Program-made: the position numbers and the translations under genes
Shown: piece by piece, positions 1 to 18,347 of the stretch
How positions within the stretch are numbered: the first letter of the stretch is position 1
Layout of the letters: every line of letters begins with the position of its first letter
From: Candidatus Latescibacterota bacterium
GTDB taxonomy: Bacteria > Krumholzibacteriota > Krumholzibacteriia > WVZY01 > JAKEHA01
Assembly (NCBI GenBank): GCA_963707635.1
Contig: OY970173.1
Location: forward strand, 2,816,001 to 2,880,000
DNA length: 64,000 nucleotides
Direction: 5' to 3'
Notes under the pieces: model-generated
The model's input: only the letters and a program-made list of their open reading frames with translations
Told to the model about the DNA's origin: nothing
Databases searched by the model: none

Positions 1-581
1 CAGGGGCGGTCGAGTACGGCGTCGGCCACGCAGCGCACCGGACCCGCAAAGCACCTTGGGGTCAGTGCATACGTCGACGGATCCAAGCCCGCCACGGGGT
101 CGAATGACGAAAGCGGCGGTCGCCACGCCTCCCAGCTCACGACGATGTCGTCGAGGACGGAATCGTTGGTGAAGGGCTGCCCGTCCGCTCCCAGCACGAT
201 CGGACGACGGTCCTCTCGGAAGGTGAAGCGTAGCATCCCGTGCCCCCCGGGCGATTCTCGGCCGGCAACCTTCGATATCACCATGACGAACTCGACGGAC
301 TCGACGGATTCCGCCCAGACCTTGACCGTACTGAGAAGGGTGATCCCTTCCACCGGATTGTTGAGAACGTTGACGTTTCGAACCAGATAGTAATGTTCGG
401 AACCAAAACCGGCCGACGAGGAGAGCCAACTGACGAACAGGGGCGCCATCGCCGCGGAAAGCCCGCTTGGGAGCTCGTCCTGCTGGGTTCTCACGCGAAG
501 GACCGGACTGTAGGTGCGCTGCCACTTGAGAATATCGGCAGCAGTAACCACGCGACGTTTACTCGACGGCATTGTCATCAT
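1..581 (-). CDS. Hypothetical protein, possibly DUF4105/Lnb-N-like (partial, runs off the window start)
   Basis: Not in the ORF track. Own translation from ATG 581, directly after the ftsH stop: MMTMPSSKRRVVTAADILKWQRTYSP...GHGMLRFTF...DIVVSWEAWRPP..FDPVAGLD. Possible 1-nt indel near position 60. Confidence 0.55.
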   Translation of the reverse strand, partial: MMTMPSSKRRVVTAADILKWQRTYSPVLRVRTQQDELPSGLSAAMAPLFVSWLSSSAGFGSEHYYLVRNVNVLNNPVEGITLLSTVKVWAESVESVEFVMVISKVAGRESPGGHGMLRFTFREDRRPIVLGADGQPFTNDSVLDDIVVSWEAWRPPLSSFDPVAGLDPSTYALTPRCFAGPVRCVADAVLDRP

Positions 582-582
582 C

Positions 583-2580
583 CTAGCTCGCGCGCCGTGT
601 TTCGGTTCCCGCTTGCGGCGCGAATCCGGTCACCTTCAGAATCTCCGGTTCATCCAGCGTCTCCTGCGCGAGCAGAGCCGTTACCAGCCTGTCGAGCTGC
701 TGGCGATGCTGGACGAGCAGGCGCGTTGCTTCTTCGTGGCATTCGGAGATGATGCGCTGCACCTCCGCATCGATGAGCCGCGCGGTGGCGTCGCTGATGG
801 GCTTCTCGCCCATGTACGCCGGAGACCCGCCAAGGTACGGATTGCCGGCGGGCGCCAGCTGTACCAAGCCCAGCTGATCGCTCATTCCCCAGCGCGTCAC
901 CATCATGCGCGTGATGTTGGTTGCCTGCTCGATGTCGTTCTCGGCGCCGGTGGTCCGGCTGCCGTACACGACTTCCTCGGCGGCGCGTCCGCCCAGCGTC
1001 CCGACGATACGCCCGCGCAGATACGACTCCGGATAGTTGTAGCGGTCGCTGATCGGCTGCTGGTACGTAACACCGAGCGCCTGGCCGCGCGGCACGATCG
1101 AGACGCGTTTCACCGGATCGGCCCCGGGAGTCACCAGCCCGAGGATGGTGTGCCCTCCTTCGTGGTAGGCGATGCGCTTGCGGTCTTCGCTGCTCAGCAC
1201 GAGTGGACGCGTGGGGCCCAGGATGATCTTTTCCAGCGCGTCGAAGAAGTCTTTCATGTGCACGTTGTCCTGGCCGCGGCGCGCGGCCTGCAGCGCCGCC
1301 TCGTTCACGAGATTCTTGATGTCTGCTCCGGAGAGCCCGGTCGTTGCTCCGGCGATCTCGGCCAGATCGACGTCAGTCGCCAGCGGCACCTTGCGCGTGT
1401 GTACTTTGAAGATTGCCTCGCGCCCTGTCTTGTCGGGAAGGTTGACGACCACGCGCCGGTCGAACCGGCCCGCGCGCAGCAGCGCCTTGTCCAGCGTATC
1501 CGGCTGGTTGGTCGCGGCGAGGACGATCACGCCTTCTCTGCTCGAAAAGCCGTCCATCTCGGAGAGGATTTGCTGCAGCGTTTGCTCCTGCTCGCCGACG
1601 CCGCCCATCACAACGGGACCACGCGCGCGACCAACCGCGTCGATCTCGTCGATGAAGATGATGGCGGGCGCGTGCTCGCGCGCCTGCCTGAACAGATCGC
1701 GCACGCGCGCAGCACCCACCCCGACGATCATCTCCACGAACTCGGAGGCACTCATGGAGAAGAATGGAACACCTGCCTCTCCCGCCACCGCCTTCGCAAG
1801 CAGGGTCTTCCCCGTGCCGGGCGCGCCGACGAGGAGTACCCCTTTCGGAGCGGTTCCGCCCAGGCGCGTGTATTTCTCCGGCGCCTTGAGGAAATCGACG
1901 ATCTCGACCAATTCGTTCTCGGCTTCGTCGATTCCCGCAACGTCGTCGAATGTCACTTTCGTGTCCGTGCTGGTGTCATATCGGCGAGCCTTGCTCGCGC
2001 CCAGACCCATGACGCCGCCCGCGCCGCCCTGGCGGCGGAGCATCCACGCGTAGAACGCGACTATCAGAATGGCCGGTCCGAACCCCAGGAGCATTGACAG
2101 CAACGGGTTGCCCTTTTGTATGGGCTCTGCGCTGATCTCCACGTCGTGGTCGATCAACAACGCCTCGAACCCAGGGTCCACGAAAGAAGGAAGCGTGGTC
2201 TTGAAATTGCGGCTCGCTCGTGCGCCACCGCCCCATGGCCGGTCCGGAGCAGCGCGGCTCGAATCCGCAGGAGGATAGGTCACCGGTTCTCGGAACCGGC
2301 CCTGGATGATCTCGCCTTTGCTGAAGACCTCTTCGACGTTGTCGCGCGCTACCTGCGTTTTGAAGAATGTGTAGGGAACCGTGGTGGCCGGTTCGGCACC
2401 AAGGAACACGCGCATCACGACGTAGTTGATGATCAGAAGGACCAGGAACGTGAGCCAGACTCGGCGCGGCGGCAGGCGTGGGCCGTCGCCCGACGAACCA
2501 CGCGGCCCGGTCCCCGGGGCTCCACCGCGGCGCGTGATGGCAGGGCGCTGGCGTTGTTGGTCCTGATTAACGGTTTCCAT
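583..2580 (-). CDS. ftsH: ATP-dependent zinc metalloprotease FtsH
   Basis: Two TM segments, Walker A GAPGTGKT, Walker [27 protein letters not shown] zinc motif. Start set at ATG 2580 behind AGGAG. Confidence 0.95.
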
Positions 2581-2678
2581 AATCACTCCTGTGCACCCGG
2601 CACTGTGAATCCCACCGCGTTCCTGCAATTCACCAGGCATGGCGACATCTTGGAGACGACCGCGACATCCAATCCATC

Positions 2679-3440
2679 TCAGCCCGCGTTGCGCGGTTTG
2701 GCCGCCCACTCGGATTTCTTGCCTTGCATGCCGGGAGGCAGCGCGAGCCCGACGCGGTGGCGTGCGAAAGTGTCATCGCGATCGAGGTGGGCGAGCATGA
2801 GCGCGGCCGCATCGGAGTACGGAACGATCATCTGTGGGATCCAGCTCGCAAAGATCGGTAGCAGCAACGGGTCGGGGAGCGCGTGAGCATCGACGGGAAC
2901 CTCGACCGGCAGTGTATCCACCGCAATCCGCAGCCGGTTCAGGCCCAGAGCCGGCTCCTCTACCATTGGCCCCGGACACAGCAGGCGCCAGTCCAGGCCC
3001 GACCGACTGAGACGTTCGAAATTGACTCGGTGCGGCCAGTACGTGGACTCGACTTTGGGCAGGTCCACTCCTTTGCGACCGGAAGGGCCGATGTCCAGGA
3101 TCGCCGCCCCCGCGAGGAACCAGCATACCGGTTGCGCGGGAGCCGGAAGTGACTCGACGGCGGTTACGAGACGGTCGACGAGGTCAACGAAGGTTTGACC
3201 CTCCGTGACCATGCCGGCGCAATTTATGAGCGCATCGTGTCCGCTGATGAGCGCTGCGATGTCAACGGGCGCGACTGTGGAGAGATCGCCCTGGTGCACT
3301 GCGACTTGAGCCTGAGCCTCGAGCGGCAGCCTGGAAGGGGTGCGGACGGAAACGGTGACCTCGTGCCCGGCGGCCAACGCCAGGCGAAGCACGTGGCTAC
3401 CCAGGGATCCCGTTGCACCAAAGATAACGAGACGAGACAC
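2679..3440 (-). CDS. NAD(P)-binding Rossmann-fold protein (flavin reductase/atypical SDR-like)
   Basis: VIFGATGSLG dinucleotide-binding motif, SGLDWRLLCP. GTG start behind GGAGG. Confidence 0.8.
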   Translation of the reverse strand: MSRLVIFGATGSLGSHVLRLALAAGHEVTVSVRTPSRLPLEAQAQVAVHQGDLSTVAPVDIAALISGHDALINCAGMVTEGQTFVDLVDRLVTAVESLPAPAQPVCWFLAGAAILDIGPSGRKGVDLPKVESTYWPHRVNFERLSRSGLDWRLLCPGPMVEEPALGLNRLRIAVDTLPVEVPVDAHALPDPLLLPIFASWIPQMIVPYSDAAALMLAHLDRDDTFARHRVGLALPPGMQGKKSEWAAKPRNAG

Positions 3441-3463
3441 TTTCGATCCTCCCGGCACCGCGC

Positions 3464-5164
3464 CTACGGGTTGATCTCGAACCGCACAGACCGGAACGAG
3501 CCGATACCGTGATCGCTCTTGTAGACCGCCACACCGAAGATGAGCCCGGCGTCGAGGCGGTACGTATTCTGAGTCCACCCCTGGTACCCGGTCAGACGCC
3601 GTTCGCCATCGATCCACAGGTCGGCAGTCTTCAGCGCCGGGTCATAGATGATCTCGTATCGGTGATAGCCGCCAACGGGACTCTGCATGAAGTCCATACC
3701 CCGAAACTCGGGAACGACCTGCGTGGGCAGGCGTACGATCTCCCGGTCGCCGTCCACAAATACCTGGACGGGAAATCCGAGGCCGCCACCACCGAATTCG
3801 GCCGCCGCATAGGCCGCACCCGCTTCTGCCCTCAGCACGGCAGTCAGCTTCCAACCCCGATCCATCGCGCGCCGCGTCTCCGAGCTGGTGAAGGGATGGA
3901 AGTACAGCCCCCGACTGGGCGTCTCAAGGCGCCAGCCATCGTAGCCCGTGTGTGTCGGATTCTCGGTGACGCCAGTTCGCACCACTTCTTCGCGCACCTC
4001 GAAGCCCTCGGTGAGTGGGTCGAAGGCACCCACCTTCTCCACGATTCGGACCGGCTCCGCCCGGTCGCGCAGGATCGTCCTCTCGATGGCCGCTGCGGCG
4101 GCAAGGGCGATCGCCAACAGCGCGACGCCCACGGCGGCGCGGCGCACGCGCCGGCGCCCCGGCCCGAGCGTACCGGCCAGCGACTCGCTCCAGGCCTGAA
4201 CGTCGGTGGGCCGCTCCTCCACCCGAAAAGCCAGCGCCGACTCCAGCGCCGCCCGGGTCTCGCGGCCCGTCGATGCGGGCAGCGCACGAACGTGCGGATA
4301 CCCGCCGAGCATCTCACAGGCCACCAGCGCCATTGCATAGACATCGGAAGCGATCGAGTGTTTGCCTTCGAACTGCTCCGGCGCCATGTAGCGTACCGTT
4401 CCGGCGATCAGCACCGCCGTCGTTTCGGGTTCCAAATCCGAGCGGTCGATCTTAGCGATCCCGAAATCGATGAGTCGCACGATGTCAGCGCCGTCGTTGC
4501 GTGGCTGCAACATGATGTTCCCCGGCTTCAGGTCCCGGTGCGCAACGCCGGCGGTGTGCGCCGCGCCAAGGGCGCTCCCCATCTGCCGCAGGATTTCGGC
4601 CGCACGCGCTGGCGGAATGGGCCCCTGTGACAACAGCTCGCTCAGGCTCACGCCTGGAACGTACTGGATTACCAGAAAAGGCGAGCCGTCCTCGAGCTCG
4701 CCGACGTCCAAGATGCCCACGACCCCCGAATGATCGATTCGCGCGAGCGCATGCATCTCCTGCTCGAAGCGCGCTTTCAGCCAGTGGGACCGGCGCCCTT
4801 CGACACGCATCACCTTGATCACGACCGGACGCATCGCCAGGTGCTGGTCATGCGCCAGGTAGACCAGCGCCTGCCCGCCCGTGGCGAGCTCCCGGTCGAT
4901 GCGGTAGCGATTCCCCAACACCTGACCGCTGGTCAGACGTGCGGCGCTCGTCAGACCCTCCACGACCGATTGCCCGAGAGGTGACCAGGGAGGATCCTCG
5001 AGAAATCCGTCATCCGGCGTGTCCCCCGAAAGCAGTGCCTCCACCTCCGCCCGCAGCGCGCCGTCGCCTTCGCAGGCCAGGGTCAGGAACGAATCTCGTT
5101 CGTCGCCGTCCAGCGCTCTCGCCGCCGTGAAGAGAGACGAGATCCGCTCCCACCGATCGTTCAC
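3464..5164 (-). CDS. Membrane Ser/Thr protein kinase with C-terminal extracytoplasmic domain
   Basis: HRDLKPGN, DFG and YMAPE motifs; TM helix AAVGVALLAIALAAAAAI; N-terminal 'RWERISSLF..A' typical of ECF-linked kinases. Confidence 0.92.
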   Translation of the reverse strand: MNDRWERISSLFTAARALDGDERDSFLTLACEGDGALRAEVEALLSGDTPDDGFLEDPPWSPLGQSVVEGLTSAARLTSGQVLGNRYRIDRELATGGQALVYLAHDQHLAMRPVVIKVMRVEGRRSHWLKARFEQEMHALARIDHSGVVGILDVGELEDGSPFLVIQYVPGVSLSELLSQGPIPPARAAEILRQMGSALGAAHTAGVAHRDLKPGNIMLQPRNDGADIVRLIDFGIAKIDRSDLEPETTAVLIAGTVRYMAPEQFEGKHSIASDVYAMALVACEMLGGYPHVRALPASTGRETRAALESALAFRVEERPTDVQAWSESLAGTLGPGRRRVRRAAVGVALLAIALAAAAAIERTILRDRAEPVRIVEKVGAFDPLTEGFEVREEVVRTGVTENPTHTGYDGWRLETPSRGLYFHPFTSSETRRAMDRGWKLTAVLRAEAGAAYAAAEFGGGGLGFPVQVFVDGDREIVRLPTQVVPEFRGMDFMQSPVGGYHRYEIIYDPALKTADLWIDGERRLTGYQGWTQNTYRLDAGLIFGVAVYKSDHGIGSFRSVRFEINP

Positions 5165-5172
5165 GCCTGCGC

Positions 5173-5739
5173 TCAAGCCTTCAGCCTCGCATGGAGCCAG
5201 GACCGCGCAATGGCCCAATCCCGGTCCACGGTTCTGGGGTTCACTCCAAGAGCGCTCGCCACTTCGGGCACACTGAGTCCCGCAAAATAGCGCAACTCCA
5301 CGACACGAGCCTGGCGGGGTGAGAGCTTCTCGAGATCCGAGAGCGCTTCGTCCAGGTCCAGCAGCTCCACCGACTGCTCCTGACTGAGGCTCAAAGCGTG
5401 ATCGAGCGAAAGCGCGGTTTGCTCACCCTCGCGCTTCTGTGCCTGCCGGTGGCGCGCGTGATCGATCAGGATCCTCCGCATGATGTTGGCGGCGGCGGCG
5501 TAGAAATGTGCCCGGTTCTCCCACGTGTGGTGTTCGTGGGCCACCAGCCGCATGTACGCCTCGTGCACCAGAGCGGTGGGCTGCAGATCGCGACCGGGAC
5601 GTTCGTGACGGAGCCGGGCTCGTGCCAGGTTTTTCAACTCGGGGTAGATCAGATCCATCAGTCGGGACGCGGCGGCGCCGTCACCCGGCCGAAACTCGCG
5701 CAGGAGAAGCGTCACCTGGGTGGCCCGTTCGCTGGTCAT
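5173..5739 (-). CDS. ECF sigma factor, STK-associated type (TIGR02999/ECF43-like)
   Basis: LQPTALVHEAY, NRAHFYAAAA, ELRYFAGLS..EVA..LGV..RTV.RDW motifs. Confidence 0.9.
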   Translation of the reverse strand: MTSERATQVTLLLREFRPGDGAAASRLMDLIYPELKNLARARLRHERPGRDLQPTALVHEAYMRLVAHEHHTWENRAHFYAAAANIMRRILIDHARHRQAQKREGEQTALSLDHALSLSQEQSVELLDLDEALSDLEKLSPRQARVVELRYFAGLSVPEVASALGVNPRTVDRDWAIARSWLHARLKA

Positions 5740-5890
5740 TGCCTGCCTCCCGTTTTCTTTTGACCCCAACAAGATAGCACGCGACCCCGCAGGATGTCGC
5801 GATTGCCTCCGCTGTCACGCCATGAAGGGTCGAGGGGTGAAGTGAAACAGGCCAAGTTGTCCGAAATGGACGGAGTGGAAGGAGACACAC

Positions 5891-6691
5891 ATGGATAAGT
5901 TCACAGTAGCGATTTTTCCGAACGAAGCCGCGGCCTATCAAGGGACACGCGTTTTCAAGGAACTGGACAAGGAACGCAGCCTGACGCTCTACGGCATGGC
6001 CGTGATCGCCAAGGACATGAATGGGAAAGTGACGATCAAGGAGGCCGCGGACCGGGGACCGCTGGGGACGGCGGTGGGCGGTCTGACGGGCGGACTGATC
6101 GGCCTGCTCGGCGGTCCAGTGGGAGCGGCGGTCGGGCTTGGAAGCGGTGCGCTGCTCGGGAGCCTGGTCGACCTTTCCAACCTCGGCGTGAGCACGAGCT
6201 TCGTGGACACCGTCCTGCAGGAAGTCACACCGGGCAAGGCCGCCGTCGTCGCCGAAATGGAGGAGGAATGGATCACGCCGCTCGACACGCGGATGGAGGC
6301 CATCGGCGGCGTCGTGGTACGTGAGCCGCGGGCTGATTTCGAGTACCTGCAGTACCAGGAGGAAGTCGTGGCGCTGAAGGATGAGCTCGCGGAACTCAAG
6401 GCCGAATTCGCCCAGTCCAAGGACAAAAACCGCGCGAAGTTGAAAGCGCGGATTGACCAGACAGAGAAGAAGCTCGAGGGCGCCTCTGCCAGAGCCGAAG
6501 CATGGATGGATCGCCGCCGGGAGGAGACGGAAGCGAAGGTCAAGGCGCTGCAGGCCCGTGCCGAAAAGGCAAGTGCCGAGACGAAGGCAAGAAACCAGAA
6601 GCGCGCCGCGGAGATTCGAGCCGAAAGCGAGCGCCGGTCGGCCCTGATGCAGCAAGCATCGACGCTGGTGAAAGAGGCGCTCAGACATTAG
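5891..6691 (+). CDS. DUF1269-like glycine-zipper membrane protein with C-terminal coiled coil
   Basis: GTAVGGLTGGLIGLLGGPVGAAVG zipper, charged helical tail, RBS GGAG. Confidence 0.7.
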   Translation: MDKFTVAIFPNEAAAYQGTRVFKELDKERSLTLYGMAVIAKDMNGKVTIKEAADRGPLGTAVGGLTGGLIGLLGGPVGAAVGLGSGALLGSLVDLSNLGVSTSFVDTVLQEVTPGKAAVVAEMEEEWITPLDTRMEAIGGVVVREPRADFEYLQYQEEVVALKDELAELKAEFAQSKDKNRAKLKARIDQTEKKLEGASARAEAWMDRRREETEAKVKALQARAEKASAETKARNQKRAAEIRAESERRSALMQQASTLVKEALRH

Positions 6692-6794
6692 CCGCGCGCT
6701 CGCGGTCCTGACCGGTGTCAGGTCGCTGGTCGCACAAAGGATCGGGGCCGTTCATGGGAACGGCCCCGCATCCGACGAGAAACGGGGGTCAGTC

Positions 6795-7502
6795 ATGTTT
6801 CCGCTGCGGGACGATATTCCATCGCGCCGCCGACCGGTGGTCGTCTGGGCGCTCGTCCTTCTGAACGCCATCGTCTTCCTGTACGAGATGCAGCTCTCCG
6901 AGGTCGAGCTAACGCAGTTCATCGAACGGTTCGCACTGACGCCGGCGGCGCTGACGGCTCCAAGCGGACTGCTCCACCACTGGACGACGCTCTTCACTCA
7001 CATGTTTCTGCATGGTGGCTGGCTTCACGTCATCGGCAACCTATGGTACCTGTGGATCTTCGGCGACAACGTCCTGGATCGCTTTGGCAGCGGGCGATTC
7101 CTGCTGCTCTATGTTGCGGGTGGGCTCGTGGCGGCTACGCTCCAGGTTTGTCTCAATCCCCAGATGCAGGCGCCGATGGTGGGCGCAAGCGGTGCGATTG
7201 CCGCCGTACTGGGTGCGTACCTCGTGCTCTATCCCAGGGCGCGCGTGATCACTTTCATTCCGATCTTTGTGTTCATCAAGCGGGTGAGTGTCCCGGCCGT
7301 CGTCTGGCTCGGGCTCTGGTTTGTAGAACAGTATCTCCTCGGAACGGGGTCTCGCTCCGATGCGACTGAAAGCGGAGGCGTCGCCTACTGGGCGCACGTC
7401 GGTGGTTTTCTCTTCGGGATCCTGGCCGGAATCTGGACGCGCGCGCGGGAAGCTGCGGGGAGAGGGCCGGCGCACGGTATCCGGCCCGCCTTGATGTCGT
7501 GA
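6795..7502 (+). CDS. Rhomboid family intramembrane serine protease
   Basis: HMFLHGGWLH..GN, GASG catalytic Ser, AHVGG catalytic His. Confidence 0.92.
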   Translation: MFPLRDDIPSRRRPVVVWALVLLNAIVFLYEMQLSEVELTQFIERFALTPAALTAPSGLLHHWTTLFTHMFLHGGWLHVIGNLWYLWIFGDNVLDRFGSGRFLLLYVAGGLVAATLQVCLNPQMQAPMVGASGAIAAVLGAYLVLYPRARVITFIPIFVFIKRVSVPAVVWLGLWFVEQYLLGTGSRSDATESGGVAYWAHVGGFLFGILAGIWTRAREAAGRGPAHGIRPALMS

Positions 7503-7596
7503 TCGTCGTCGGCGTTACGCCATAAATGTCGAAGGAAGAACAATCGTCGCCAGCCGGCGGAACCGTCGTCCGGCGACACAACCTGGGAGGTAGATC

Positions 7597-8313
7597 ATGG
7601 TGGAGATGCTGGCGCGCAACTGGGGATGGGTGCTGATGCGCGGGATCGCGGCGATACTGTTCGGCATGCTCACGCTCTGCAATCCGGGAATCGCACTGAC
7701 GACGCTCGTCATGCTCTTTGGCGCCTACGCGCTCCTCGACGGCGTCTTTATAGCGGTGTCGGCGGTCGCGAACCGGAAGGGCCAGTCGCGCTGGGTGGCA
7801 CTGCTGGTGGGCGGGATCCTGGGGATCGCGGTCGGCATCCAGACCTTCCTGATACCGAGCCTCACGGCGGCCGCTTTGGTAGCATTCATCGCGATCTGGT
7901 CAATCATCATCGGCATCACCGAGATCGTGGCGGCAATCACGCTGCGCAAGGTGCTCTCGGGCGAATGGATGCTTATGCTCGCCGGCCTGGCGTCGGCCGC
8001 CTTCGGCGTATTCCTCATCGCGCGTCCGTCGCTGGGGGCCCTGGCAGTGGTGCTTTGGATCGGCGCCTCGGCGATGGTATCGGGGATCCTGCTTATCGCG
8101 CTGGCCTTCCGACTGCGCAGCTGGGGCCGCAGTCCGGCCATCGCGGCACTCACCGCGCGCGCAGCAGCGTGGCGTGCCGGCGTAGTGTACAAACTCGCGA
8201 GCCCGCGGCCGCCACGGAGCGGCCGCGTCGCTTCCAGGCCGCGTGTGACGGCATTTCGCCGGCGGCCGCGAGGTTCATCGAGAGTCCCTCAGCACACGAA
8301 GGAGACTCATTGA
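7597..8313 (+). CDS. HdeD/DUF308 family membrane protein
   Basis: MLARNW..LMRGIAAILFG start and six hydrophobic segments. The tail after ~8150 looks non-homologous, so the true end is uncertain. Confidence 0.8.
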   Translation: MVEMLARNWGWVLMRGIAAILFGMLTLCNPGIALTTLVMLFGAYALLDGVFIAVSAVANRKGQSRWVALLVGGILGIAVGIQTFLIPSLTAAALVAFIAIWSIIIGITEIVAAITLRKVLSGEWMLMLAGLASAAFGVFLIARPSLGALAVVLWIGASAMVSGILLIALAFRLRSWGRSPAIAALTARAAAWRAGVVYKLASPRPPRSGRVASRPRVTAFRRRPRGSSRVPQHTKETH

Positions 8314-8335
8314 GTAGCTCAAAGGAGGAACAATC

Positions 8336-8833
8336 ATGTACGGATTCAAAGCGTTCGTGTTCAATGGCAAGAAGACGGCCAGCAAGGCTTACGATACTCT
8401 CGAAGAGCACATGCCGGTCTACCCGTGGATTGATGACGCCGCCGTGGTGTCGAAGAACAAGCTCGGCTTCACCCGGGTTTACAGCACCTGGGCGCAGGAC
8501 GACACCGCGGTCGGCGTCGGAACCGGTCTCGGCGTAGTGACCGGTGCCCTGCTCGGAGCCATTCTGGGGCCCGGCGTCGCTGCGGCGGGAGCCGCGGTGG
8601 GTGGTTCAGTGGGCGCCGTGTCCGGCGCGGTCGGCGAAAGCGTCCTCAGCGACCCGCGCTTGGACGACTTTGCGGCGTCGCTCGCGAAGGACACCTCGGC
8701 GTTGATTCTGGTCGGCGAGAGAGCCTCGATCCTCGACTTCACCTCGGCGGTCGCGCCCTACGGTGGAAAGATCATCGAGACCAACCTCGACGAGAAGGAC
8801 GTCAAGGCCCTGAGGAAGTCTCTCAAGAAGTAG
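8336..8833 (+). CDS. DUF1269-like glycine-zipper membrane protein
   Basis: DDAAVV, GTGLGVVTGALLGAILGPG zipper, GGKIIETNL; RBS AGGAGG. Confidence 0.7.
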   Translation: MYGFKAFVFNGKKTASKAYDTLEEHMPVYPWIDDAAVVSKNKLGFTRVYSTWAQDDTAVGVGTGLGVVTGALLGAILGPGVAAAGAAVGGSVGAVSGAVGESVLSDPRLDDFAASLAKDTSALILVGERASILDFTSAVAPYGGKIIETNLDEKDVKALRKSLKK

Positions 8834-8979
8834 GGAGCCGTCGATCCCGATGCCCGGCGGGAGCGATCTGGGGGCGACGCGCCAACACAAGGTTGGCCCG
8901 TCGCCCCTCTTTTTTCGCGTCGGCGCGGCCCATTTAGGACGCAGAGCGCTTCATCATGAGCAGCGATGCCACAAAGGGT

Positions 8980-9050
8980 TGGTGGAGGCGGCGGCGAGCG
9001 AAGCGAAGCTCAGAGCCGACCTCTGGCTTGTGTTCTACACAAACAGAGTT
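8980..9050 (-). repeat. tmRNA-3'-end-linked repeat unit (42-bp core plus hairpin spacer)
   Basis: 8980-9021 TGGTGGAGGCGGCGGCGAGCGAAGCGAAGCTCAGAGCCGACC is identical to 14464-14505. Confidence 0.9.
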
Positions 9051-9225
9051 TGGTGGAGGAGGCGGGAATCGAACTCTGTCGATGGAGAAACTCTAACACG
9101 TTGATGGCGTGTGGTTTCGGATGCTACGAGTTGAAACATCGCCAGTTAGGTGACCGCTGCTTCTCCACTCCAGTCCTCTGCAGTCTTCTGGAATCGACCC
9201 ACGTCATGGAGACATTTTGGAGACG
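9051..9225 (-). mobile_element. att-like module copy 1 (displaced tmRNA 3' end plus arm)
   Basis: First 24 nt match the ssrA 3' end (1 mismatch). Ungapped alignment with 11034-11208 gives about 142/175 identities by hand count. Confidence 0.8.
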
Positions 9226-9248
9226 CCACGCAGCGTTCGCTCGGGACG

Positions 9249-10733
9249 TTAGTGCTGCGTGGGCAGATCTGAGGAATGTAGCAGCTCCACAACCAGCCGC
9301 TGCTCCTCGTTGCCTCCCTCGTCGTGCCACCGAACGCGCGTGATCTGGATGGACCGGTTCGTGATCCACAGCGGATCGGACACGGCCCATTCGGAGCCAT
9401 CGAGTAGGCACCACGAATCACCCGTCGCGGCGTCCGCAATCCACAGGTCGGCCGCAATGGTGTCGCCCACGTGGTGCAGCCGTGTCGGACGCGAGAATGC
9501 AATCCACCGCCCATCCCGGCTCCAGGAGAATTCATGCGACGCGCCCACCTTCAGACTGTCGATAACCGTTACTCGGGCATCGGGAACGGTGACAGTGTAG
9601 AGAAGGGCTCCGCTCCACTTGCGGGAGATGCCGCTTACTGCGATGGTGCGTGAGTCCGGCGACCACTTCGATTCAGTCCCGTCGGTGAGGTCGCCTTCCA
9701 TGACGATCTTGGACGCCGTCACGTCGACCACCGTCAATTGATAGGGATTCAGATGCGATTTCCAGACCACGCAGCTAAGGCAGCGGCCGTCCGGCGACCA
9801 TTGAGGCAAGGACGCCGGCGTCTCTAGCAAACGGCGCGATTCTCCAGTCGCGACATCGACGATCTCCACGTAACCCCTGCGCGAAACAATCACGACGCGT
9901 GCAACCAGAGAGTCCGGCCCAGGCACGTAGTTTCGGTCCGACGACGACCGGAGATAATCCGTTTTTGTTTCGAAGGGGACGTCGTCAGCCCACGGCTCTC
10001 GCAAAGCCACGACTTTCCACGGATTCACGGACGCGTGATTGCGGACTGCGCTGCACTTGACGGCAGTCAGGAGCAGACTTTCGTCGCCCGGCGCAAACTC
10101 TCCAACGGCGACATCGTCCAATCCGAAGCTCGCCCCGTTCTTCCCCACGACGCGGAAGCCAAACTGAACCTTCTTGCCGGCCCACGCCGACAGATCGACA
10201 AAACGTTCGCGGTAGATGAATGGATCCGCCGGTGACTCATTGCCAGTGATCGACCAGAGAGACGTCCAGCCTGTCGTACCCGCTTCACGAATGTTGAGCG
10301 ATCCATCGAGCACACTCGACCACTGCGTATTCCCGGACCAGGAAAACTTGATTGCCTTGTCGGTCGCTCCGAGCGCCACCACCGGCGTGATCAGCCACTC
10401 GTCGATAGCTCTCGGTGACTCGCTTCCGACATACGCCGCCGCGCTCCCGGTTCCAATGTTGTCGGGATCGGTGGTTCGGTGCCAGGCGTGCGGCAGAGGC
10501 AGGCCTGCGCTCTTCGTGCTCCAGCCCGGCGGCGGAAAGGTTGCGCCCTCGAATCCCTCCGCCAGTGTGGCTGGCGGTACACGTCCCGCCGGTACCGCCG
10601 ACTGGGATCGTTGGGAAGCAGCCAACGGCGTGCATTCTGGTACTCCGTGGGCGTTGCCGACGATGAACGTGGGAACGCTGAGGAGAAGCCCGGCAATAAA
10701 CGCCTTCATAAGGAGTGTCATGGGTCGCTTCAT
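9249..10733 (-). CDS. Secreted protein: cleaved-adhesin/MAM-like domain plus TolB-like beta-propeller
   Basis: Signal peptide; EGFEGATFPPPGW..DEWLITP..LDDVAV; WSPDG/WSPDS/WSRDG repeats. Start uncertain (ORF open to 10784). Confidence 0.7.
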   Translation of the reverse strand: MKRPMTLLMKAFIAGLLLSVPTFIVGNAHGVPECTPLAASQRSQSAVPAGRVPPATLAEGFEGATFPPPGWSTKSAGLPLPHAWHRTTDPDNIGTGSAAAYVGSESPRAIDEWLITPVVALGATDKAIKFSWSGNTQWSSVLDGSLNIREAGTTGWTSLWSITGNESPADPFIYRERFVDLSAWAGKKVQFGFRVVGKNGASFGLDDVAVGEFAPGDESLLLTAVKCSAVRNHASVNPWKVVALREPWADDVPFETKTDYLRSSSDRNYVPGPDSLVARVVIVSRRGYVEIVDVATGESRRLLETPASLPQWSPDGRCLSCVVWKSHLNPYQLTVVDVTASKIVMEGDLTDGTESKWSPDSRTIAVSGISRKWSGALLYTVTVPDARVTVIDSLKVGASHEFSWSRDGRWIAFSRPTRLHHVGDTIAADLWIADAATGDSWCLLDGSEWAVSDPLWITNRSIQITRVRWHDEGGNEEQRLVVELLHSSDLPTQH

Positions 10734-11033
10734 TGGATCATCGTGCGAGTGCGACAGGTCGCTGCATAACCTTCGCCATTTCACGACCAGAAGGGACCGC
10801 TGAAAGGTGCTGCAGAGGTGCGTTCAATGCAGAGTGTCCGCGGAGTAGTTAGCTAACGCGGCGATGCCACCCAAGCGACGACTAGATACGAAGCGGCGGG
10901 AACTGCGGAAACGCGGATTTCGTCATGGAAACGGCGAGCGGCATAAGTTGTTCACGCTTCAGCGGTTGGTTACAATGGCACGCAAGTCGCGCTTCGCGCG
11001 AGCACTCATAACTCTATACGAATACACAAGAAA

Positions 11034-11208
11034 TGGTGGAGGCGGCGGGAATCGAACCCTGTTGCGAACGAAACATTAACCTGATGATGGCGTGCGATTT
11101 CGGTTGTTGTGAGTTGAGAGATCGCAGGTTAGTTGACCGCCGCTTGTCCACTTCAGTCCTCTTGAGTCTACCGGACTCAACCCACGTCATGGAGACATTT
11201 TGGAGACG
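11034..11208 (-). mobile_element. att-like module copy 2 (displaced tmRNA 3' end plus arm)
   Basis: 11034-11059 is a perfect 26-nt copy of the ssrA 3' end (14533-14558). Ends in a 29-bp block identical to 9197-9225. Confidence 0.8.
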
Positions 11209-11402
11209 GGTTTGACCTTCGCCCTTGTGCGGAGTTACTTTTATGGTGAATTGCCAGTCGGTTCTCGCCCGTCTCCGGGCAAAGATGTGGGCTTGAAAGT
11301 GTCCACCGTTCGGATTACGCTGCCTGCATTCCGGCCCGGTGATTTCATTCCGGAGACCTCCTTTCTTGCGGTTAACTCCAGGCGGCCATCGGCCCAAGGA
11401 GC

Positions 11403-14324
11403 GTGACGCGCTTGCCAACTCCGCGCGATTTCATCCTGCACCGCAGTTTCTTCGCCATGCTCGTACTGGCGGTCCCGCTCTTCCCGGCGCTGCTCTCCGC
11501 GGCAGAGAACGCGACCTCGACGGCCGTTCCTGCTCCGGCCGCGCCCGTGCGCCATGCGCCGTCGATTGATCGCAACGCCATCCAGGCCGCCGTTCAGGAA
11601 TTCCAGTCTTCCCAGTCACCCCGCTGGACGGTGTCGTGGGACCCGGTGAGCGGTCTCCCTCGAATGCTGACTGGCCAGACCACGCGCTCCTACGGGGCCA
11701 CATCGGAAGCCGCCGCGCTGGCATTCGCTGGCGAGCATCGGATGCTTCTGGGCTTGATCGATGAGAAACACTCGGTGCGCCTGGTTGGAACGAAACTCAT
11801 GCGCACCCAATGGCGCGTAACGCTGCAACAACAATTCGCCGGGATCGACGTCCTCGATGGGACGATTCAGGTGGTCGTGGACGGGAAAGGCCGCGTCCTA
11901 TATGTGACAAACTCGGCGTGGCCGGTTTCCGCCGTCGATTTCTCGATCGATGTCGGTGAGAGCGCCGTACGCTCCTCGATCGCCCGGCGGTTCAGTGGCG
12001 AAGACGTCACCTACAATGACGGACCCCGCCGCGTGATCTACCCATCCGGGAATGGGCGGCTCGCGTATGTGGCGTACGTGCTCGCCGGCCCGCAGGGGCC
12101 GTGGCGCGTCCTCGTCGATGCGCGGACGGGCGGCATCCTGGAAGCGCGGCGGTTGGTGGTCGAGGAGAAGCAGGCCCCATCGCAGGATGCCGCGACGCAG
12201 CAGAATCCGTCGCGCCCCGCGGACGTCGCCGACGTCAATGATCCGTGTGCCCGCGAGTGGAACGAGATGGGGGGAGCCGCGGTGATCGAGGTCCCGGATC
12301 CTGCAGACCCGTACTATGTCGACGTAAAGGTTGGCGTGCCCGGTCTCGGCGAGTTTCAACCGCAGGGGATCGGGACGTCCGCTGCGGGGATCAAACTCTT
12401 TCCGTGCATTTATTACACAATCCAGGTCGACTACAACGTGCACACCTGGGGTGGCTGGAATACTCCCAACGGCTTCCGTGATGTCTTCTTCGTCAACGTC
12501 AACAACATGAACTGGTACTGGAATCTCGGGCTCATTCCGCAGGCGCAGCTGTTCTGTACGACCGCCTACAACGACATGGGACTGATTCTCCCCGGCAAGG
12601 CCTGGGTCGCCGGCGGGAATCGATGCGGCGACGGCCTCTTGTGCGATCTGGTGGGATCGTTCCAGTTCGACATCATCGAACCGAACAACACCAAAGAGCT
12701 CTATCTCTCGGTTGGGATGCAGCGGGTCTCAGTTTCGTGTCCGTCATGGGGGACCATCCGGGTCAAGATCATCGCGAAGTCCCGTGTCTTCGACCCCAAC
12801 CCGGTGACCACGCTGAACCAGCCCTTCACGGACCAGGATGACGCCAACGAAGCCGTTCCCTGCGACGCGTACATCGGCGTCGACCTTCCGAATCTTACCC
12901 CGCCGCCGCCCGGGCAACCCTGGACTCTCACGGGCGACTATTGCGAGATCGTGGACATCACGGCCCCTGCCAAAACGTACACCTCGGCGCGCGACCCGAA
13001 TTTCCCCTATCTGCGCCGGTGCGACATGTTCGAAGCGGTGAATGCCTACTACCACATCACGACCAACCAGCTCTACATCCAGTCTCTCGGTTTTACCGGC
13101 CTTTCCGGCATCAACAACCGCGCGCATCGCGTGGACCCGCATGGGATGGATCACGTGGACAACTCGCAATACGTCGGTAATCCCCCGGGACTTGGCTACA
13201 TCGAGTTCGGCGAGGCCTTTGTCGACGACGCCGAAGACGCCGACGTGATCCTCCACGAGTACGGCCACTCGATTCAGGACAACCAGACATTCGGCTATTA
13301 CCTCGGGACTGGCGCAGGCAACGGCTTCGGCAACGAGACGTGGGCGATGGGCGAGGGGTTCGCCGACTACTGGGCGTGCAGCAACTTTGCCGACGAGAGT
13401 ACCGCGAGCGGCTTCGACCCCGCCGCGTACGGCGAGTGGAACAAACAGAACATGACCGGGACCCGCAGGGTCGACAAGAACAAGATCTATCCGACGAATA
13501 TGGAAAGCGAAGAACACGCCGACGGAGAGATCTGGTCGCGCACGCTGTGGGACCTCTTTCAGGCAGTCGGGAAGACGACCTCTGACGTGCTCATACTGGA
13601 GAGTCACTATCTCGTTCCTTCACGTCCATTGTTCAGCGACGGCGCCAAGGCGTTGATTGCAGCGGACGCAGTTGCCAACGCGGGCGCCAACAAGAATACG
13701 ATTGTCGCCATCTACGTCGATCGCGGCATCTTCCGTAGTCTCGCCGTTGCATCGTCGCCCATCAACGGCGTGCCGATCACCGTGTCGAGGCAGGACGTAC
13801 GTGGCGATCAAAGTGATGCCACCGACTTCAACCGGACGTATGCGTGGGGGGACTCGGTATCGCTCGACGCACCGCCCTCGTTTGGCGACCGTACTTTCAC
13901 GCGCTGGGATGTGGACGGCGTCGCGGGTGCGAACGGCGACTTGACCGCCGTCGTGCGCATGGACGAATCGCCACCATTTCACTCGGCCATCGCTTACTAC
14001 GATACTCTCCCTGGCGACCCCGGCACGCCCGTCCGTGACATCCCGAAAGCCCTGGCGCTGCTTCAGAATCACCCGAACCCGTTCAACCCGACGACGACGA
14101 TCACGTTCACGTTGCCGAGGGAGATGGAGATCGAGCTTTCGGTGTTCGACGTGGCGGGCCGGCGGGTGGCCACACTCCGGAGCGGACGCGAACGGGCAGG
14201 CGTCTATGCCGTGGTGTGGGATGGACGGAGCGCGGCCGGTGAGACGGTGAGCTCGGGCGTGTACATCTACCGGTTGCGAGCGGGCCAAACGGTTCTGACG
14301 AGGAAGATGACACTACTCAAGTAG
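11403..14324 (+). CDS. Secreted M36 (fungalysin)-like metallopeptidase with propeptide and C-terminal FlgD-Ig-like domain
   Basis: Signal peptide, FTP/PepSY-like prodomain (WRVLVDARTG), HEYGH, MGEGFADY, EHADGEIW, NHPNPFNP...RKMTLLK. Confidence 0.85.
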   Translation: MTRLPTPRDFILHRSFFAMLVLAVPLFPALLSAAENATSTAVPAPAAPVRHAPSIDRNAIQAAVQEFQSSQSPRWTVSWDPVSGLPRMLTGQTTRSYGATSEAAALAFAGEHRMLLGLIDEKHSVRLVGTKLMRTQWRVTLQQQFAGIDVLDGTIQVVVDGKGRVLYVTNSAWPVSAVDFSIDVGESAVRSSIARRFSGEDVTYNDGPRRVIYPSGNGRLAYVAYVLAGPQGPWRVLVDARTGGILEARRLVVEEKQAPSQDAATQQNPSRPADVADVNDPCAREWNEMGGAAVIEVPDPADPYYVDVKVGVPGLGEFQPQGIGTSAAGIKLFPCIYYTIQVDYNVHTWGGWNTPNGFRDVFFVNVNNMNWYWNLGLIPQAQLFCTTAYNDMGLILPGKAWVAGGNRCGDGLLCDLVGSFQFDIIEPNNTKELYLSVGMQRVSVSCPSWGTIRVKIIAKSRVFDPNPVTTLNQPFTDQDDANEAVPCDAYIGVDLPNLTPPPPGQPWTLTGDYCEIVDITAPAKTYTSARDPNFPYLRRCDMFEAVNAYYHITTNQLYIQSLGFTGLSGINNRAHRVDPHGMDHVDNSQYVGNPPGLGYIEFGEAFVDDAEDADVILHEYGHSIQDNQTFGYYLGTGAGNGFGNETWAMGEGFADYWACSNFADESTASGFDPAAYGEWNKQNMTGTRRVDKNKIYPTNMESEEHADGEIWSRTLWDLFQAVGKTTSDVLILESHYLVPSRPLFSDGAKALIAADAVANAGANKNTIVAIYVDRGIFRSLAVASSPINGVPITVSRQDVRGDQSDATDFNRTYAWGDSVSLDAPPSFGDRTFTRWDVDGVAGANGDLTAVVRMDESPPFHSAIAYYDTLPGDPGTPVRDIPKALALLQNHPNPFNPTTTITFTLPREMEIELSVFDVAGRRVATLRSGRERAGVYAVVWDGRSAAGETVSSGVYIYRLRAGQTVLTRKMTLLK

Positions 14325-14348
14325 TCCGCGTCTGATCGAAGCGGCGCA

Positions 14349-14532
14349 CAGAGCCAACGCATGGTCCTCGTTCGACGAGAACAGGGTTTGGCGGAGGCAG
14401 CGGCTGGCGCGGAACGCGCTGCTCAAAGCCCACCTCAGGTTTGTGTCTTACACAAACAGAGGTTGGTGGAGGCGGCGGCGAGCGAAGCGAAGCTCAGAGC
14501 CGACCGGAGGCTTACTGTTAGTAAGCATGGGT
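14349..14532 (-). repeat. Tandem tmRNA-3'-end-linked repeats (about 70-75 bp period)
   Basis: TGG(T/C)GGAGGC(G/A)GCGGC at 14389 and 14464 precede the true ssrA end at 14533; each pair is separated by a distinct hairpin. Confidence 0.85.
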
Positions 14533-14904
14533 TGGTGGAGGCGGCGGGAATCGAACCCGCGTCCGAAGAAGCAGCCGCAACGGTTACTACGTGTGTAGTC
14601 CGTGGTGATTTCTCATCTCCGTACCCACCGCGGACGAAAGTGTAACGGAGACCAGCCCGGTAGTTTCTCGCGCCTCAGCCCCAGACATAGCCTCGGCGCC
14701 AGCCCCCAGAGTATGACGCCCACTCACCGGCCCTGGAGACCCAGCCGGTGGGGACGGGAGCCTAAGCTAGCTTAGCTAGTTAGGCAGCCAGTGCGACGTT
14801 GTTGTCAGCACTTGAATTGGTGCCACCTGGTTTTACGAGGCTTGTGACCTGGCTCGACACGCAACCGGTACGCCCATCTTCCCCGTCGAGACCTGTTCGC
14901 CCCC
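14533..14904 (-). ncRNA. ssrA: tmRNA
   Basis: 5' GGGGGCG pairs with 3' CGCCTCC-A-CCA including G3:U70; T-arm GGTTCGATTCC; tag reading frame ADNNVALAA* at 14809-14780. Confidence 0.97.
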
Positions 14905-15957: not shown

Positions 15958-18347
15958 CTACTTCAGCAATAGCATCTTACGTGCGAGCGTCGCTCCGCTC
16001 GCGTTGAGACGGTAAAAGTAGATCCCGCTTCCCACGCGCCGGCCTTCATTATCGACACCGTCCCATTCCGCGACATAGGTCCCGGCACGGCGATGCGTGT
16101 CGAGTAGCGAACGGACGAGGGCGCCTCGCGCGTCGTAAATACGCAGCGAGACCGGGCCGTCGCGTTCCACGCCGTAAGAAATCCTGGTGGTGGGATTGAA
16201 CGGATTGGGGACGTTCTGATCCAGGTGGGTGCGAGCCGGCGTTGTGCCGGCGCCCGTCACCGCGCCCGGCGTGAGCAGCCGCAAAGGCGCTCTCGTTGTC
16301 GTGCAAATCGAACGCGCTGACCTTGTAGTAGTAGCCGCTCGAGGGTGTCCACGCGGGATCGAGGAACGACTCCGACGCCGGCGTTGCGATGCGATTACCC
16401 GCATCCGGGACAAAGCCCGCCGTGCTTCCCCGATACACGCCGTAATTCGCGAGATCGTGCTCGTCGTTTGGCTGCCACGACATCGAGAGTCCGGCAGGAG
16501 AATGTGATTGTGCACCCGCGAGATTCTGAGGCGCGGCCGGGGCAAGGTTATCGACCGAGTATCCGCTGTCTGGCGCGCTGTCGTAATACACCGACGGCGT
16601 CGTGGTCTGCGCCATTACGAAGTACACGTTGTACGGAGTGACCGCAACCGTCTGGTCAGCCTGCGTAGGTGCGAGCACGATGTAGTCGCTCGACTGCTGC
16701 CGCGCGGGAGCGCTCGCGACCGATTCCCACAACGCTGCTGTGGACACCGCATCCAGCGAGGGCTCGCGCCAGATCCGGTGACCTTCCCATTCGATAGCGC
16801 TCGACTTCCCTACCACGCCCTCGCTTTGGATCTGCGCAACGAGAGCTGCATTATCGATGCGCCGAAACACGTAGTACGTGAGCACACCCGGCGAAGCACT
16901 CGCGATGTCCTCTCCCGATCCCTGGAAGTAGACACGCACCCAGCCACCCTGATCTCCGGGCACATCGACGATGTTGTGAATCTCCGGCTTCTGGCGGCTG
17001 AATCGGGCGATGAAGATATCCTGGCCCGATGCTGTGAGATTGCTTCCCCCAAAATTGGTCGTACCGTTGACGTAGCCGGTCATGACGACATTGTTCGCCG
17101 GGTCGGTGACGACCCGGTTGGCATGCTGATCAGACGCGTCACCGTACGTCGCGTTGAACAGAAGATTCCCGTCGTTGTCGAATCGAACGAGAAAAATGTC
17201 GGTGCCACCGGCACTGGTGAGGGCTCCGGTTCCAAAATCCACGCTGCCCGCGTAGTAACCCGACCACGCCACCGCACCGCCGGCATCCACCGCGGGCCCA
17301 TTGGCGTTTTGCGCGCCGGCATCCCCGAAGCGTCTTGCTCCAGACATGATTGCCCGCGGCATCCAGCCTGGCGATGCAGATGTCGTTGCCACCTGCCGAC
17401 GTCAGCCCGCCGCCGCCGAAATCCACCGTCCCCTGGAATGTTCCCGTGACGAAGACGTTACCCGCCGGATCGAATCCGATTCCATTTCCGATCTGGCTGC
17501 TGGCATCCCCGAAGCGCTTGCTCCACACGTGCACGCCCGCGCTCGTGAACCGCGCAACAAAGATGTCGTTGCTTCCTCCGCTGGTAATGGTGCCACCACC
17601 GAAGTCGGCGCTGCCCGCCATGTTCCCCGCAATTCCAACGTCTCCGTCCGCACTAACTGCCACCCCGATCCCATTCTGGCCCCCAGTCGCTCCGAAGCGT
17701 TTGCTCCACAGATGATTTCCGGCGGGATCGAACTTCACCAGGAATATGTCGGCGCCGCCCCCGCTCGTGAGCGGCCCCCCACCGAAGTCCACGGTTCCAT
17801 TCATCAATCCGGTCATGTAGATGTTGCCGCTGCCGTCGGTGGCGATGCCGTTTGGAATCTGGTCGGTCGCGTCGCCAAATTGCTTGCTCCACTGATGCGC
17901 GCCGGCGGAGTTGAATTTACCGACAAAAATGTCGGTCAAGCCGGCGGAACTGAGGGTCGAACCTCCCAGGTTCACGGATCCTGACACTTGCCCGGCCAGA
18001 ACGACGTTGCCGGAAGGGTCACAGGCCAGTGCGGTGCCGTATTCGGACATTGTCGTGCTTTGGAAAAAGCCCACGCTGTAGAGATGGGTCCCGCCAGCGT
18101 TGAATTTGGCGAGATACGGTGCATCGTCCGTGCTTCCGACCGTGAAGTCCCCCCCGCCAAAATTGACCGTCCCCCGAAACATGCCCGTGATCCATACGTT
18201 GCCGCTCGGATCCACGGCAATTCCGCGGCCGTCCTGTGTGTTGACATCGCCAAAGATCTTGCTCCAGCTATGCTGGAGAGCCGGGGCAGCCTCGAGACGG
18301 ACGGAATTGAGGAGAAGAAGCGAGAGGACGACGGGACGGATTCGCAT
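15958..18347 (-). CDS. SBBP-like beta-propeller repeat protein with FN3-like stalk and FlgD-Ig-like domain (two apparent frameshifts)
   Basis: Repeats GTVDFGGG.LTSAG..DIF..KF...G.H.WSKRFG. Continuous protein split over three ORFs at about 17335 and 16280; ends QNVPNPFNP..RKMLLLK. Confidence 0.8.

Follow-up and report, generated by a model that had tools for sequence, protein, structure and literature searches.

Integrase-less genomic islands stacked at the 3′ end of the transfer-messenger RNA (tmRNA) gene, ssrA, are already known. In Dehalococcoides, 15 ssrA islands without an integration module were interpreted as possible cis-mobilisable elements; the islands there lie in tandem behind ssrA and end in a copy of the ssrA 3′ end with further conserved bases, and an integrase adjoins and overlaps the left attachment site, attL (PMC3146451). 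Streptococcal cis-mobilisable elements (CIMEs) have lost their integration and transfer genes, are stacked by site-specific accretion and move in cis with a neighbour (PMC5704250). The tycheposon islands of Prochlorococcus contain small integrase elements at tRNA and tmRNA genes, with newcomers displacing older ones outward; the elements are rarer than the islands left behind, and partial tRNAs and broken integrases persist as remnants (bioRxiv 10.1101/2020.12.28.424599). Here we describe a locus that resembles all three in these respects, a stack of three integrase-less units at the 3′ end of ssrA in Candidatus Latescibacterota bacterium (contig OY970173.1, positions 2,816,001 to 2,880,000; these 64,000 nucleotides are called the window and the source genome G000). 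Taking the evidence together, we think it probable that the conserved modules closing these units are right attachment (attR) ends of a tyrosine-integrase element, and that the units are mobilised in cis by a visiting intact element.

The tmRNA gene (14533..14904, minus strand) was recognised by ARAGORN and by Rfam (RF00023, E 7e-73) and encodes the tag ADNNVALAA. The last 26 nt of ssrA form the integration core, and three direct-orientation copies of this 3′ end, 24-26 nt long, lie at the distal ends of the units. The same arrangement characterises islands of tyrosine integrases that target tRNA genes (tDNA), where the tDNA and a displaced 3′ fragment mark the two ends (Islander; PMC4383910). 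The repeats at 11034 (26/26) and 9051 (23/24), to which an earlier note on this DNA had drawn attention, were reproduced. Genome BLAST and alignment place one module at 11034..11208 (+), closing unit 1, and another at 9051..9225 (+), closing unit 2; a third full module at G000:C1:2814420-2814594, 1,581 nt ahead of the window start, closes unit 3. The two in-window modules are colinear and ungapped at an offset of 1983, agree at 142 of 175 aligned positions (81%) and finish in an identical 29-mer, as the earlier note had stated, and an E value of about 1e-42 in a genome-wide BLAST of the module rules out a chance match. The source genome, assembled as one contig, has five matches to the arm motif in which the modules end, every one within 26 kb of ssrA; a motif search located an eroded copy with one mismatch at 2640..2658 (+), probably the end of an older unit, and a second eroded copy lies at G000:C1:2804604. 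The units in the window have no matching attL arm: on the attL side of all three the arm pair is absent and the core retained, two of these ends have a weak left-arm score, and the attR-type modules are complete. A profile search of the 64-kb window gave no match to a tyrosine recombinase, a large serine recombinase or a resolvase, in agreement with the earlier note, and no transfer gene was seen among the Pfam matches of the in-window open reading frames (ORFs) scanned, two ORFs ahead of the window being left unscanned. Across the source genome there is no match to PF07508 or PF00239, and the three matches to PF00589, two Xer-like and one an intI-like fragment, are each more than 0.8 Mb from the array. 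The C-terminal piece of a gene named integron-integrase-like by resemblance lies at G000:C1:806248-806385 (L004), about 2 Mb from ssrA.

Length and anatomy were measured in 165 modules, of which 133 are 174-176 nt long, with shorter variants clustering near 165 and 155 nt. Each begins with the 26-nt ssrA core and continues through a variable stretch of 12 nt, a conserved block with a site like that of integration host factor (IHF), four 10-bp direct repeats and the arm end, TGGAGA.AT..TGGAGACG. The 10-bp periodicity is evident from an identity of 0.60 at lag 10 and 0.62 at lag 20, compared with 0.17-0.36 at other lags, and the IHF-like site was matched in 80/91 modules with up to two mismatches to the IHF consensus, used without a control. 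In the module of unit 1 (+ strand) the ssrA core occupies 11034-11059, the putative IHF-like site about 11077-11089, the four repeats 11150-11189 and the TGGAGAC pair 11190-11208; in unit 2 the pair is at 9207-9225. We infer that IHF or a similar protein binds the first site, an HTH_17 excisionase the four repeats and the integrase the TGGAGAC pairs as its arm sites; mycobacteriophage Xis repeats are said to offer a parallel. Hybrid cores of modules at secondary sites retain only the T-loop end, which suggests that crossover takes place in the T-loop part of the core. In one subfamily (L181, L182, L184, L216, L098, L163, L167, L243 and L259) the module is longer by about 55 conserved nucleotides, opening with a third TTGGAGA-like repeat. 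In two genomes (L068:2061 and L061:7843) one and the same sequence breaks the arm pair at an identical position, followed by an IS110-family transposase in L068 and by none in L061; possibly an IS110 element targets the arm.

The enzyme to which the module belongs was recognised in genome G012, where the final codons of a tyrosine integrase adjoin the tmRNA gene and contain the TGGAGAC pair. This remnant led to an intact element, L102, which comprises a module (9991-10165), cargo, an excisionase gene (xis; HTH_17, PF12728) and an integrase gene (int; PF00589). The integrase has 391 aa, and its frame continues through the core into the tmRNA gene, as in the Mx8/SSV type of integrase, which extends across attP. 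At each of the 12 integrase-bearing tmRNA ends used, a TGGAGAC pair lies within the 3′ end of the integrase gene, about 42-44 nt away from the core; xis precedes int at 10 tmRNA loci, and sister enzymes at tRNA-Asp, tRNA-Met and tRNA-Glu genes bear the same pair. Because both element ends occur together in L102, in L187 and L195 (these two with a 5′-truncated int and without xis) and in G216:C12, the module most probably represents the attR arm of this element family. The loci establish the anatomy of the element and tie the module to xis-int. The att-like site that the earlier note had ascribed to a tyrosine-integrase system has thereby found its system: the module stands at the far end of the L102 element, whose integrase adjoins tmRNA, and in relatives it borders variable genes at ssrA. 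The cognate integrase family is rare, occurring in 2/208 genomes of the phylum (62-63% identity), in none of the 36 genomes of the order, the source genome included, in 1/18 and 10/206 genomes of two other groups, and in 3/10 module-bearing genomes of other lineages. Three other candidates were set aside. The integrase of G026, which lies within a module-bounded stretch, is 31% identical and falls outside the family clade in a quick tree with long branches that is indicative only, and in the same indicative tree the tyrosine recombinases of the source genome are far from the family; the two HTH_17 matches of that genome do not match the family xis. A phage origin was rejected as well: viral contigs gave no match to the module pattern and contain integrase relatives of only 23-33% identity, and no phage record was found at E 1e-30.

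Of the 50 complete units, among which one right end counts twice, 46 have no integrase match, and 8 of the 12 units directly at tmRNA have no integrase trace; the complete units have a median length of 3.0 kb. Their integrase side is ragged. It is intact in L102, 5′-truncated without xis in L187 and L195, reduced to short tails in L040, L191 and L233, to the arm pair in L168 and to the last 33 nt in L212, or gone altogether. A left-arm matrix gives a weak signal, with 17/46 ends above the 95th background percentile and nine above their own shuffles. Insertion of cargo into a minimal unit of arm, 44 nt and core was considered and rejected, as there is no left-arm signal past the arm and no 220-bp unit among the 50. 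In the window, the two intervals hold a single long ORF each, in opposite orientations, as the earlier note had read them. The cargo of unit 1 (11403..14324, +; start uncertain, first ATG at 11457) is an M36 metallopeptidase with an FTP propeptide and a FlgD/type IX secretion system-type tail, and that of unit 2 (9249..10784, −; likely start ATG at 10733) combines a choice-of-anchor J domain with a weak PD40/TolB-like propeller (both by Pfam and NCBIfam). The single secreted gene, which the earlier note had taken as the rule, does not extend to unit 3, with 10.6 kb and about ten genes; its in-window part (1..8979) encodes a second copy of ftsH, an epimerase, a Ser/Thr kinase, an extracytoplasmic-function sigma factor, two DUF1269 proteins, a rhomboid protein and a DUF308 protein. 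Outside the source genome, only 25 of 46 complete units have one ORF of at least 120 aa, and both gene orientations occur among the 46. Nor is the cargo confined to secreted proteins: the 76 of 112 cargo ORFs that were scanned include secreted repeat proteins, AAA_14/DUF4143 ATPases (five), kinases, transporters, enzymes and insertion sequence (IS) transposases, and none is a site-specific recombinase. An ATPase with AAA_14 and DUF4143 recurs as cargo in six units (L223, L207, L052, L100, L168 and L187). Among the defence-type cargo of L195:11230-19018, an element whose integrase is truncated, are a Replic_Relax gene and a Cap17-like nucleosidase. The second ftsH copy of unit 3 (583-2709) is 46% identical to the other copy and has the eroded arm motif directly next to its likely start codon.

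Of the 35 other genomes of the order, 14 have near-full-length modules; in 25 genomes outside the order but within the class, matching was confined to the tmRNA end, with two matches reaching 40 nt. Pattern scans returned 46 rows from a genome collection and at least 121 stretches from metagenomes, and after removal of duplicates at least 184 modules were collected. Both scans demanded core and arm motif, and short contigs favour small complete units, so that integrase-bearing units are under-counted. The genome-collection titles name Ca. Krumholzibacteriia, Latescibacterota, Eisenbacteria, Acidobacteriota, Deltaproteobacteria, Planctomycetota and Gemmatimonadota, which are labels of metagenome-assembled genomes; the host itself probably falls within the Krumholzibacteriota lineage. 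In the complete genomes G027 and G031 (loci L050, L051, L064, L065, L128 and L129) several cores are hybrids, and one module lies 0.7 kb behind a tRNA-Arg gene. Unit order varies between relatives. Unit 2, second in our array, is first at tmRNA in G013, with 82% identity over 1.55 kb and the joint kept, compared with 73-77% for the backbone. G012 matches parts of unit 3 at 95.7% and 87% identity and the backbone at 71-76%, and it has both ends of the unit without the ftsH-to-rhomboid middle. These are signs of horizontal transfer of two of the three units. A search that scored 8 candidates per genome in the order's 35 other genomes did not find unit 1 with its module, and the cargo of this unit has one homologue of 69% identity with no module within its 5.4-kb locus. 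A related strain has one contig in which position 10733, where the unit 2 gene probably begins, meets the tmRNA end; one flank of this junction has only 30 letters, and the contig is suggestive only.

The junction between arm and cargo is exact. The aligned columns have an identity of 0.99 up to the arm end and are at background level no more than 2 nt later. In 335 module pairs of at least 85% identity with unrelated cargo, the variable inner positions are 80% identical; relatedness therefore reaches the joint. Among the 36 nearest pairs (at least 90% identity) 29 share nothing past the joint, three share 8-100 nt and four share more than 100 nt; within two 14-module clusters the cargo begins in 14 and 13 different ways. 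For 16 pairs with shared cargo, one hand-chosen per cluster, mismatches amount to 22/64 at +1 to +4 and to 81/416 at +5 to +30 (p 0.013). In L152 and L192 the cargo is 99.5% identical over 644 nt and the modules 88%, with mismatches at +1 and +3. All these statistics come from related sequences that are not independent. Internally truncated modules number 10, full ones 40. Gene conversion was considered as a cause of the sharp joint and appears less likely from the seven genomes compared: none shows homogenisation of its modules, the identity within a genome being not generally above that between genomes. A search for module-less cargo donors from which a target motif could be read gave no informative case.

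Excision and co-transfer would, on the cis-mobilisation reading, proceed as follows. An intact element would insert at ssrA ahead of the resident units and at times excise by way of its attL and a module farther out, taking the intervening units along. In the new host the helper would either excise alone or lose xis-int by deletion, leaving an integrase-less unit at ssrA, and later arrivals would displace older units outward. A passenger would need its distal arm only, and we propose that the modules therefore stay intact while the integrase side erodes. G216:C12, with an intact xis-int at tmRNA and integrase-less units farther out, has the arrangement expected. Several observations count against this scheme. 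It leaves the initial joining of cargo to the arm end unexplained, and an exact joint is not what random decay predicts. Only in G216 was an intact helper seen in tandem with passengers, and there the two are separated by 66 kb and a second integrase fragment. In both G027 and G031 the modules are dispersed over three loci that lie away from ssrA. Assembled contigs of other strains showed no excision, circle or empty site; no listed sequencing run contains half of this stretch, and no RNA run containing it is listed. The Int, Xis and IHF sites are predictions, with the IHF consensus matched at two mismatches and without a control, and the small-unit bias of short contigs and the core-plus-arm requirement of the scans bear on the unit counts.

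The exact joint is the main attraction of a different explanation, close to that of the earlier note, in which a module and any bare ssrA core form a complete substrate, Int and Xis acting in trans excise circles and re-insert them, and a programmed reaction attaches new cargo to the arm end. All accessory sites would then lie on one side. The loss of identity within 2 nt, the 29 nearest pairs without shared extension, the many cargo starts in the two 14-module clusters, the mismatches at +1 and +3 in L152/L192, the excess at +1 to +4, the lack of homogenisation in seven genomes and the small, whole-gene units speak for it. We nevertheless regard capture of this kind as unlikely. All intact ends have a second arm pair, which the units lack, and in ICEMlSymR7A efficient integration needs all five arm sites (PMC11963761). 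Mobilisation in trans is further weakened by the absence of the cognate integrase from the 36 genomes of the order; there is therefore no resident source of the enzyme. The test at +1 to +4 rests on its 16 hand-chosen pairs, and the 10 truncated modules beside 40 full ones indicate that random breaks happen too. Tyrosine recombinases, moreover, are not known to cut at arm sites. Equally doubtful in our view is integron-like gene capture across phyla on a tmRNA-targeting xis-int element, with foreign DNA replacing the interior exactly from the distal arm end and a transient integrase excising the one-armed units and re-inserting them at ssrA.

Still less probable is that the units are dead remnants of larger islands that have no site-specific recombination and spread by homologous recombination at tmRNA, the ~70-nt repeats described below or the modules. 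In favour of this are the frequent integrase remnants and truncated modules, the two eroded arm motifs farther out in the array, the one mismatch in the core at 9051 and, for Dehalococcoides, the remark that some tandem islands may be fixed (PMC3146451). Decayed islands with integrase remnants were also what the earlier note named as telling against its cassettes, and that objection stands in part, since graded remnants of the integrase exist in relatives. On the other hand, module length and motifs are kept across many lineages (133/165 at 174-176 nt), unit 2 occurs at different ranks with its joint intact, and most modules have no common cargo even with near-identical neighbours. Finally, the tRNA-like 3′ end on the tmRNA strand might bring to mind a structured RNA repeat or an assembly artefact, either of which we consider very improbable. 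The module folds no better than its shuffles (z −0.3, −0.1 and +1.2) and matches no Rfam family except tmRNA; its copies are 81% identical and hence not duplicates, the joints recur in independent genomes, and the genome is a single contig.

The ~70-nt units at the ssrA end are a repeat family separate from the 175-bp module. Each consists of a hairpin followed by a stem ending in the ssrA 3′ 15 nt plus CCA. Three of them in tandem, one degenerate, occupy 14318..14532 (−), and the two that were folded have z scores of −3.6 and −3.1; a single unit heads unit 3 at 8980..9050 (−; z −3.35). One to four tandem copies directly behind tmRNA or a core also occur in several relatives and at L135, L137, L041 and L299. 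In G012 one such unit separates tmRNA from the integrase remnant, which suggests that they form at the tmRNA end once integration has taken place. Upstream of the tmRNA gene, an SBBP beta-propeller gene contains 183-bp periodic repeats at 17298-18273, which are ordinary coding repeats.

The array differs from its closest counterparts in several ways. The Dehalococcoides islands have the serine recombinase DsiB within a six-gene module and a 15-bp motif (PMC3146451), whereas here we find a two-gene set of xis and tyrosine integrase, a 149-bp arm, ~3-kb units and several phylum labels. The cognate enzyme, with PF00589 and an HTH_17 xis, is not of the DsiB family, and the source genome has no PF07508. 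CIMEs keep attL and attR by definition (PMC5704250), but here the attL arm pair is mostly gone; no transfer gene was seen among the ORFs scanned in L102 and L187, and L195 has its Replic_Relax gene. The units fit the CIME definition only in part. The primary papers on CIME accretion are reportedly Pavlovic 2004 and Bellanger 2011. Unlike in tycheposons, no replication or packaging genes were seen here, and the available text on those islands describes no long conserved remnant arm (bioRxiv 10.1101/2020.12.28.424599).

The earlier note had built on a likeness to integrons. As in integrons, the newest unit is nearest the platform and the units are small, often single-gene, with one conserved site each. 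The array is unlike integrons in having no IntI beside it, a site that is not palindromic and a tDNA core as target; its genes run in both orientations and have their own upstream regions. Neither IntI nor attI adjoins the array, the only trace being the distant intI-like fragment. The module has direct repeats and folds like its shuffles, as calculated with RNA parameters and with no attC model run, and the genes are not co-oriented. The array is not an integron.

Within the literature searched, which lacked most subscription papers, we found nothing on this xis-int family or on a fixed joint between arm and cargo. Stacking of integrase-less units at ssrA is established; new are the identification of the xis-int family, its breadth and the exact arm/cargo joint. 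Islander rejects candidates without an integrase (PMC4383910), and arrays like this tmRNA stack are therefore filtered out by design. Island finders that demand an integrase discard them, yet the module is found in 14/35 other genomes of the order and under several other phylum labels. Now that the xis-int family and both att arms are named, the CIME idea can be put to the test with a system of two genes and a 175-bp site. If the joint is programmed, it would represent an undescribed route of gene pick-up by integrative elements; if not, the array is a well-resolved example of a known pile-up. For these little-studied lineages it reveals surface, signalling and defence genes gathered at one site.

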